A stretch of DNA of 64,000 nucleotides, from assembly GCA_965197475.1 (NCBI GenBank), contig CBDANF010000003.1, forward strand, positions 2,048,001-2,112,000. The letters are read 5' to 3'. Below, piece after piece: positions 21,528 to 22,238 of this stretch (its first letter is position 1; each line of letters begins with the position of its first letter). Position numbers and translations under genes: made by a program. A model generated the notes under the pieces. It saw nothing but the letters and a program-made list of their open reading frames with translations, had not been told where the DNA came from and made no database searches. Origin of the DNA: Candidatus Poribacteria bacterium (lineage in GTDB: Bacteria > Poribacteria > WGA-4E > WGA-3G).

Positions 21528-21563
21528 TTTAATGACGTATTGTACGTGCAATACGTCATTAAA
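21528..21563. other. putative tyrosine recombinase target site (dif-like 15-6-15 inverted repeat)
   Basis: TTTAATGACGTATTG-TACGTG-CAATACGTCATTAAA with perfect arms, 63 bp upstream of the recombinase ATG. Confidence 0.6.
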
Positions 21564-21566
21564 ATG

Positions 21567-21595
21567 TTGACGCTGATAACGAAGCATGATACAAT
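21567..21595 (+). promoter_or_regulatory. sigma70-type promoter of the recombinase
   Basis: TTGACG-N17-TACAAT with TGn extended -10; the -35 starts 3 bp after the inverted repeat. Confidence 0.7.
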
Positions 21596-21626
21596 TAAAA
21601 TCGTCAAATTTTTATGGGGAGCTTAA

Positions 21627-22238
21627 ATGACGAAACCGAAAAGAAGAAAAACACAACAACCCCGAGTACTCGATGAATTACAACAGAGAATCCTTTTAGA
21701 GGCACTCAATAATAGAGAACGCGACAGGATGCTCGTACTCTTTTGCCTCCGAACAGGACTTCGAAACGCTGAAGCATGCGGCATGAATATCGGGGATGTG
21801 CTCAAATTTGGAAGCATTGTTACTACGTTAGAAGTGCGATCAGAAATTGCAAAAAATAAGGTTTCAAGAAGGATACCGCTCGTTAACGACGTAAGAGATG
21901 CACTCCACGATTTCTTGCTGTGGAAATTAGAACGAGGAGAAAAAAATGAATTGGAGAGTCCGCTGTTCTGCACACTTCGCACAAAAAACCGTCTGGCACC
22001 CCGAGACTTTCAGCGTATCATGGAAGCAGCGTCCGCAAACCTTGGGCTTAGGTTCACACCGCACGATTTACGCCATACCTTCGGCACAGAACTCTATCAC
22101 GCAACACATGATTTAGAATCGGTGCGCATTGCATTAGGACATACAAGTTTAGATGCAACACTTATCTATATGCATACTAGTCCTGATATATTGCGGCAGC
22201 GGTTTGAGACTGCGTTCGGTGGGCAAGCACAAGGCTAA
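21627..22238 (+). CDS. tyrosine recombinase, catalytic domain only (203 aa)
   Basis: TGLRNAE (R), AKNK (K), HDLRH (HxxR), LGH and IY (Tyr) all present; no N-terminal core-binding domain. Confidence 0.92.
   Translation: MTKPKRRKTQQPRVLDELQQRILLEALNNRERDRMLVLFCLRTGLRNAEACGMNIGDVLKFGSIVTTLEVRSEIAKNKVSRRIPLVNDVRDALHDFLLWKLERGEKNELESPLFCTLRTKNRLAPRDFQRIMEAASANLGLRFTPHDLRHTFGTELYHATHDLESVRIALGHTSLDATLIYMHTSPDILRQRFETAFGGQAQG

Follow-up and report, generated by a model that had tools for sequence, protein, structure and literature searches.

The locus described here raises the question of whether a tyrosine recombinase of only 203 amino acids (aa), which lacks the core-binding domain of its better known relatives, can form a complete system of the Xer/dif type with the single inverted repeat upstream of its gene. 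It lies in a stretch of 64,000 nucleotides, here called the window (G000:C3:2048001-2112000), from the genome of a sponge symbiont, Candidatus Poribacteria genus g1; G000 denotes this source genome. An earlier note on the window had proposed a compact, possibly autoregulated chromosome-dimer resolvase at the apparent terminus. Our analysis establishes a self-contained module of recombinase and site, with one site, one promoter and one gene, which is conserved, single-copy and intact in its active site. We put the probability that it acts, by a predicted recombination reaction, as an autoregulated, FtsK-independent system for the resolution of sister sites at roughly 0.45, somewhat under even odds, and its location at the terminus is unproven. 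The features of the module, in window positions, are these:

21512 to 21522, plus strand: conserved motif TGTAACTGTAC, 5 nt upstream of the site, nearly invariant in 27 aligned upstream regions
21528 to 21563, no strand assigned: candidate core recombination site (left arm 21528-21542, spacer TACGTG 21543-21548, right arm 21549-21563)
21567 to 21595, plus strand: predicted sigma-70-type promoter of the recombinase gene (-35 TTGACG, 17-bp gap, extended -10 TG-n-TACAAT)
21616 to 21621, plus strand: ribosome-binding site GGGGAG, 5 nt before the ATG, with GGAG kept in most orthologues
21627 to 22238, plus strand: tyrosine recombinase, 203 aa, catalytic domain only (PF00589), with a basic N-terminal tail KPKRRK

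The recombinase and its relation to Xer proteins

The only Pfam family above its curated cut-off in the 203-aa protein is PF00589 (residues 14-185, 101.6 bits against a cut-off of 27.1). Together with the catalytic set R46, K76, H146, R149, H172 and Y181, which is present in the window protein and kept in all 27 orthologues, this places the protein in the tyrosine recombinase superfamily. The gene is under strong purifying selection, with dN/dS values of 0.04-0.12 at dS values from 0.5 to saturation. A Pfam search of the protein found no N-terminal domain family such as PF02899, and because no open frame among the orthologues is longer than 242 aa, the missing core-binding domain is real. Thus the description in the earlier note, a short enzyme with a full R-K-HxxR-H-Y set and no core-binding domain, holds, and the protein lacks the domain that XerC/XerD, XerS, XerH and XerA have in common.

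Comparison with curated models places the protein close to the catalytic half of Xer recombinases. The XerC and XerD models TIGR02224 and TIGR02225 gave 94.2 and 72.9 bits, below their cut-offs of 335 and 330, with the alignment confined to model positions ~93-290. The XerA model NF040815 reached 95.4 bits (E 4e-27, cut-off 220) and aligned only over its C-terminal positions 85-261, while the XerS model NF003462 reached 78.3 bits against a cut-off of 267. Each of these NCBIfam models, for XerA, XerC, XerS and XerD, therefore matches through its C-terminal half only. Similarly, a profile of the family searched against solved structures found XerA first (4a8e, E 4e-40; 5hxy), then XerD and then XerH. 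The AlphaFold2 model of the protein has a pLDDT of 92.9; with it, Foldseek returned XerA 5hxy as the top match and XerH as another close one, and the alignment to XerA begins at the interdomain linker. A two-copy complex prediction scored 0.29 against a mark of 0.42, which is evidence neither way.

Two derivations from a longer protein were rejected. A truncated local Xer was ruled out, the identity to the 303-329-aa Xer-like proteins of sister families being ~29%. For a split Xer with its core-binding domain encoded elsewhere, the sole PF02899 match in the genome proved to be a Cre-like remnant. This remnant, at locus L057 (G000:C2:1020093-1023272), is encoded by an open reading frame (ORF) on the minus strand (G000:C2:1021410-1021823) and comprises 144 aa from the N-terminus of a Cre-like tyrosine recombinase. 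Intact copies of ~308 aa, in which W replaces the second His, are present in G053, G001, G024 and G019; their surroundings differ and include restriction-modification genes.

The site, its promoter and their inheritance

The candidate site is a 36-bp inverted repeat of 15-6-15 layout, TTTAATGACGTATTG-TACGTG-CAATACGTCATTAAA, at 21528-21563. The number of such repeats expected from 100 shuffles of the window is none, and a scan of the whole 5,697,279-bp, three-contig genome found this to be the sole place within 6 substitutions. Across 40 genomes of genus g1, the outer-arm pattern occurs exactly once in each of 28 genomes, always beside and upstream of the gene. Site and gene co-occur in all 28 carriers and are both missing from all 12 non-carriers. 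The site was found upstream of the gene at 19 of 19 loci in a first set and for each of the 27 aligned sites, with the orthologues at 79-94% identity within the genus. The module thus has the single-copy site, inverted arms and centre of 6-8 bp that characterize Xer/dif systems, and the linkage immediately upstream of the gene in all members that characterizes systems of the XerS/difSL type. The earlier note had seen no second copy of the site, and that observation now extends to every carrier.

The site is far more conserved than its surroundings. In the 27 aligned orthologous sites, 32 of 36 columns are invariant, compared with none of 40 fourfold-degenerate codon sites of the adjacent recombinase gene. 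The variable columns are 8, 15, 25 and 26, the last three being inner-arm positions. Apart from one position in a single sequence, the outer 10 bp of the arms (TTTAATGACG / CGTCATTAAA) do not vary. All 27 sites have the same spacer TACGTG, with its asymmetric outer pair, in a constant orientation relative to the gene; the earlier note had assigned this pair a role in directionality, which its invariance would suit. The perfect arms seen in the window are an exception, found in only 2 of the 27 orthologous sites. In the most frequent form, with 14 of 27 sites, the right arm contains CAAAACG, so that the site usually departs a little from symmetry.

Intergenic DNA at the 27 orthologous loci is strongly diverged except for TGTAACTGTAC, the 36-bp site and the promoter hexamers, which are conserved as one block, and for two shorter stretches further upstream. 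The motif TGTAACTGTAC looks like the inner part of the left arm together with half of the spacer (CGTATTGTAC) and may be an accessory half-site. The predicted promoter consists of TTGACG (21567-21572) and TACAAT (21590-21595) with a TG ahead of the -10 box, 10 of 12 hexamer positions matching the consensus; TTGAC and TAnAAT are kept in the orthologue alignment. As the earlier note had stated, its -35 box begins 3 bp past the right arm. An Rfam scan of window positions 19000-25000 gave nothing beyond two chance-level matches. In a read-level check, which used assembled Logan contigs only, no joints or loose ends fell within 21528-21563 among those listed.

The module sits among housekeeping genes, namely those for Bmp, a 2-hydroxyacid dehydrogenase, a hydantoinase, UbiD, an oxidoreductase and PolA. 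No cargo or mobility genes were found near it, in agreement with the earlier note, which had also seen no phage genes. It adjoins the Bmp gene in 23 of 26 loci, the remaining three having too little upstream flank, and the relative orientation of gene, promoter, spacer and Bmp is constant in all 23 loci that have Bmp. In five non-carriers, other genes fill the interval between Bmp and UbiD, with no trace of the module. We built a UbiD tree with 17 rows (the window, 11 carrier loci and 5 non-carriers; 15 carrier loci whose flank does not reach UbiD were left out) and rooted it at the midpoint. Four non-carriers form one clade, G024 stands separately and carriers fall on both sides of the root. 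This pattern of sequences fits vertical inheritance of the module with one or two losses. The Cre-like recombinases were considered as a replacement in non-carriers and rejected: intact copies are also present in carriers, and the two distributions are not cleanly complementary.

These data bear directly on the possibility that the enzyme is an invertase, flipping a segment between this site and a second, degenerate one to give phase variation. FimB and FimE are invertases of ~200 aa with a catalytic domain only, and the window protein resembles them in its 203 aa and its missing core-binding domain. It also matches the FimB-type models NF007370 and NF007371 weakly (E 1.4e-9 and 6e-7). These matches are weaker than those to the Xer models, their 37.9 and 29.2 bits fall far under the cut-offs of 221 and 222, and the domain is nearer to Xer proteins than to the invertase models. 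Additionally, FimB and FimE need two inverted sites that bound an invertible segment, whereas no second site lies within 6 of 36 substitutions in G000, each of the 28 carriers has exactly one outer-arm pattern, and the orientation with Bmp never changes in the 23 loci. We therefore regard an invertase as very improbable.

The nearly self-complementary spacer had also led the earlier note to offer a hairpin-telomere resolution site, cut by its own resolvase, as a less likely alternative. We reject this alternative, since in all assemblies the site is internal to large contigs, of 4-6 Mb. Systems of the ResT/TelK type combine replicon ends with a large resolvase, while the protein here is a 203-aa Xer-like catalytic domain, and no telomere resolvase appears among the 15 solved-structure sequence matches or the Foldseek matches listed.

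Two repeated elements flank the module in the window. A 36-bp REP-like palindromic element at 21207-21242, with the core GCGCAATGAATTGCGC in most copies, has 41 copies within 6 mismatches in G000, mostly as single copies, and shows very high word depth and repeat-spacer-like joints in runs derived from sponges. At 22509-22669 lies a MITE-like element of 161 bp whose terminal inverted repeats, 38 nt long, are imperfect; on contig C3 there are 10 identical copies of it and one that is nearly identical, and the element is also found in RNA-library contigs.

Xer functions and short recombinases in and beyond the lineage

The module gene is the sole PF00589 match in G000, and 10 further carrier genomes likewise have one match each. 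No full-length protein of the XerC/XerD type was found in G000, nor were FtsK_SpoIIIE and FtsK_gamma; RecA is present. Of 121 genomes of the order, only 4 gave an FtsK_SpoIIIE match, in proteins of 954-1813 aa. The FtsK by which bacterial Xer systems are activated was thus not found in the source genome, and the module would be compatible only with an FtsK-independent mode such as that of XerA.

Sister families differ in this respect. With the XerD model, families f2, f3 and f4 each gave one full-length match per genome (303-329 aa, E 1e-51 to 1e-58), spanning model positions 2-284, whereas no genome of family f1 scored better than ~1e-28, with partial model coverage only. Families f2-f4 keep their single full-length Xer-like protein though FtsK_SpoIIIE is rare in the order. 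In the sister genus g9, a syntenic recombinase of ~256 aa lacks a core-binding domain and carries a C-terminal extension of ~60 aa. The XerD model picks it up in 35 of 37 g9 genomes, and it lies directly after a holA-like gene (L098-L104, e.g. G090:C1:4590000-4595500), with no large palindrome evident upstream.

In family f3, where the full-length Xer persists, all four homologues of the 203-aa protein are degenerate (G084, G089, G029 and G057): truncation affects two of them, an internal stop the third, and the fourth lacks three catalytic residues. This last homologue, P0057 at locus L085 (G084:C36:65431-68991), has K, N and L in place of R, H and H, respectively, and a fused, sensor-like beta-propeller as its C-terminus. 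Half-site-like motifs flank its promoter.

Outside the lineage, the 203-aa protein is 35-45% identical to many proteins of ~190-220 aa in a library of 1.84 billion proteins. At E values of 1e-10 or better there are 905 library proteins, and 131 of the best 150 are at most 242 aa long. This similarity to so many short proteins makes it a member of a broad, poorly described family of catalytic-domain-only recombinases. Some relatives come from viral contigs, where 12 of 79 are at most 230 aa long and identities reach 34% at most, and one Atlas cluster with short relatives is mostly viral. The outer-arm site pattern gave 0 matches in IMG/VR contigs, and a tblastn search against plasmids gave generic matches of ~33% identity only.

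A homologue ~60% identical to the window protein is encoded on metagenome contig L151, where a compact 11-8-11 inverted repeat (AATGTCGGAAA, 8 bp, TTTCCGACGTT) lies at -272 to -242. The L151 and g1 sites share a hexamer-N16-hexamer spacing, with ATGTCG in both arms of the former and ATGACG in both arms of the latter, and such a symmetric change supports a cognate pairing of protein and site. Positions 1230-1500 of L151 additionally hold three direct 18-nt repeats that end in CCGACAT, a consensus TTGACA-17-TATAAT promoter and one more inverted half-site. A broader survey of upstream palindromes at 48 metagenome loci gave 5 with p of 0.05 or less; since most of those loci encode recombinases of 270-465 aa, outside the short family, it was uninformative.

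The motifs around these promoters bring up the possibility that the palindrome is an operator only, bound by a protein that has been co-opted as an autorepressor or regulator and has lost recombination. The site abuts the -35 box, operator-like half-sites flank the promoter in both L151 and G084, and the propeller fusion P0057 shows that the fold can be reused without catalysis. Nonetheless, P0057, the clearly reused homologue, has lost three catalytic residues, whereas all six are invariant in the 27 orthologues of the module. Furthermore, an invariant asymmetric 6-bp spacer is the architecture of a recombination core and is not needed by a symmetric repressor. We consider an operator-only function improbable, though less so than inversion.

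A possible sister-site resolution system

The reading that we favour can be set out as a sequence of steps. The enzyme would correspond to an Xer-like catalytic domain that starts at the position of the interdomain linker and would bind as a dimer to the two inverted arms. Tyr181 would then make cuts that flank the 6-bp spacer TACGTG. Synapsis would bring the site together with a second copy, carried by the sister chromosome or by the other half of a chromosome dimer. As each genome has one site, the partner can only be one of these, which makes the resolution of sister sites, and hence of dimers, the most economical function. The conserved asymmetry of the spacer would set the alignment of the two sites, and the reaction would proceed without FtsK, as in archaeal XerA. 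Its expected outcome would be the conversion of dimers, possibly also of catenanes, to monomers. Lastly, with only 3 bp between the right arm and the -35 box, occupation of the site should repress the promoter of the enzyme itself.

A bolder form of this reading takes the 203-aa catalytic-domain-only enzyme as the complete chromosome-dimer resolvase of a lineage that lost canonical Xer and FtsK, with the 36-bp site doubling as operator and the basic tail replacing the core-binding domain. We advance it tentatively, as a real possibility that is distinctly short of an even chance. Were it to hold, no natural Xer/dif system would be smaller, and the module would parallel Cre/loxP in a naturally minimal form. 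Contact between the basic N-terminal tail and the outer, AT-rich TTTAAT is a speculative addition.

The position of the module on the chromosome is merely compatible with a terminus region. The strongest DnaA-box cluster of G000, and the only strong one, packs 9 boxes, each with no more than 1 mismatch, into 250 bp immediately following dnaA (G000:C2:1172872-1173123) and is the likely oriC. Positional support comes from the distance to dnaA only. Measured along the shorter arc in single-contig assemblies, the module lies 0.462 (G003), 0.425 (G009), 0.461 (G017), 0.489 (G020) and 0.482 (G022) chromosome lengths from dnaA, and in G000 the distance is ~0.42-0.43 with any contig order. Given the synteny that these genomes share, the distances together amount to about one observation. 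Strand composition does not help further. Cumulative skew in G000 is flat over 1.7-3.1 Mb, the stretch that holds the site at 2.07 Mb, and its GC, AT, ORF-orientation and unsupervised 8-mer skews (with some top 8-mers derived from repeats) are weak and have several arms, so that no terminus can be called.

Several findings weigh against a role in dimer resolution, beginning with chromosome position. In G000, G020 and G022 alike, neither GC skew nor gene orientation switches in the 200 kb to each side of the module. The sharpest skew maximum of G000 is at ~0.85 Mb of C3, ~1.2 Mb from the site. Across G020, sampled in eighty 20-kb pieces, G-C tracks the local coding strand with no significant two-arm pattern, and skew therefore cannot place the terminus. 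Multi-contig assemblies gave dnaA-module distances of 0.19 (G006), ~0.34 (G007) and ~0.37 (G052), next to ~0.42 in G055. The "apparent terminus" of the earlier note does not stand as an observation; the window shows only a small local minimum of cumulative GC skew near 20-24 kb.

Distribution and kinship add to these points. Of 40 congeners, 12 lack both gene and site, among them the single-contig assemblies G005, G021 and G024, and given this absence the module is dispensable. The 12 non-carriers have no consistent replacement, and two of them, G046 and G051, lack any PF00589 match; the sister genus g9 is without the 203-aa gene (0 of 65 genomes). The nearest relatives belong to the broad family of ~190-220 aa, some of them in viral contigs, and the downstream neighbour of the L151 homologue is a DnaG/Toprim_3 primase, which suggests that the family is of mobile-element origin. 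We also count here that RNA-library contigs do not reach the recombinase gene, an observation with no bearing on expression. Finally, to our knowledge no natural tyrosine recombinase without a core-binding domain resolves dimers. A search of a paper library, supplements aside, turned up no described Xer without this domain and no paper joining Poribacteria with a tyrosine recombinase; short recombinases of this kind may be classified in the datasets of PMC8138268.

Many of these points would be accommodated if the module were an autoregulated recombinase and site left from a mobile element, where it served plasmid or phage multimer resolution or integration, and since fixed in the chromosome. 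It would then have another substrate, for instance as a host-encoded landing site for an unsampled element, or no role in chromosome segregation. Its dispensability, the primase and extra half-sites around the promoter of the L151 homologue, the viral relatives and the missing skew switch all agree with such an origin, as does an identity of ~29% to the Xer proteins of sister families against 35-45% to short recombinases elsewhere. On the other hand, one locus has been retained in 28 species under strong purifying selection, with synonymous sites saturated. No cargo or mobility genes accompany it, no genome has a second site, no IMG/VR contig has the outer-arm pattern, and the listed Logan contigs show no joints or loose ends at the site. 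A mobile-element remnant is thus unlikely in our estimate, yet it is the alternative to be taken most seriously. Sister-site resolution, which remains our preferred reading, draws on the conservation of the module, its single copy and the failure to find Xer or FtsK in the source genome; of the resolvase that the earlier note had proposed, the compact design stands, resolution and autoregulation carry the somewhat less than even odds given above, and the placement by skew is not supported.

The closest organizational parallel is XerS/difSL of streptococci and lactococci, which the earlier note had also named. PMC1914069 describes a conserved site immediately upstream of xerS and proposes autoregulation, and to that extent the two systems are alike: a single recombinase and a single-copy site just upstream of its gene form one genetic module. 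They differ in that XerS has 356 aa with an N-terminal domain, depends on FtsK and acts on a 31-bp site at a skew-defined terminus, whereas the module enzyme has 203 aa, FtsK was not found and the terminus is not located. Archaeal XerA, the best match by sequence and fold, is a single FtsK-independent recombinase; PMC5357621 reports a 28-bp dif, some xerA/dif modules and dif positions 122-144 degrees from oriC, which is not exactly opposite it. Unlike the module enzyme, the two solved XerA chains, of 292 and 317 aa, include a core-binding domain.

XerH/difH of Helicobacter and Campylobacter shares with the module a single recombinase, inverted arms, a short centre and a similar catalytic domain (5jk0, 5jjv). 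XerH has a core-binding domain, which the 203-aa protein lacks, and PMC5357621 gives it 354-362 aa and a dependence on FtsK. Cre/loxP also resembles the module in its one enzyme, compact inverted arms, asymmetric spacer, site beside the gene in P1 and similar catalytic fold. The Cre chains matched are larger, however, at ~313-332 residues, and align in Foldseek at 14-16% identity. Cre has an N-terminal domain, and loxP a 13-8-13 layout.

All of the dimer resolvases compared here (XerC/D, XerS, XerH and XerA) consist of two domains that clamp the DNA. If the module is merely a persisting autoregulated remnant, it is a well-conserved curiosity. If the favoured reading is true, a catalytic domain of ~200 aa and a 36-bp site would suffice for ordered site-specific recombination without FtsK. 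The module would then widen the known range of Xer systems and offer a very small recombinase-site pair for genome engineering. It would also explain how dimers are handled in a phylum largely without FtsK, and would provide a clear case in which a system of an essential type has been replaced, possibly by a module from a mobile element.

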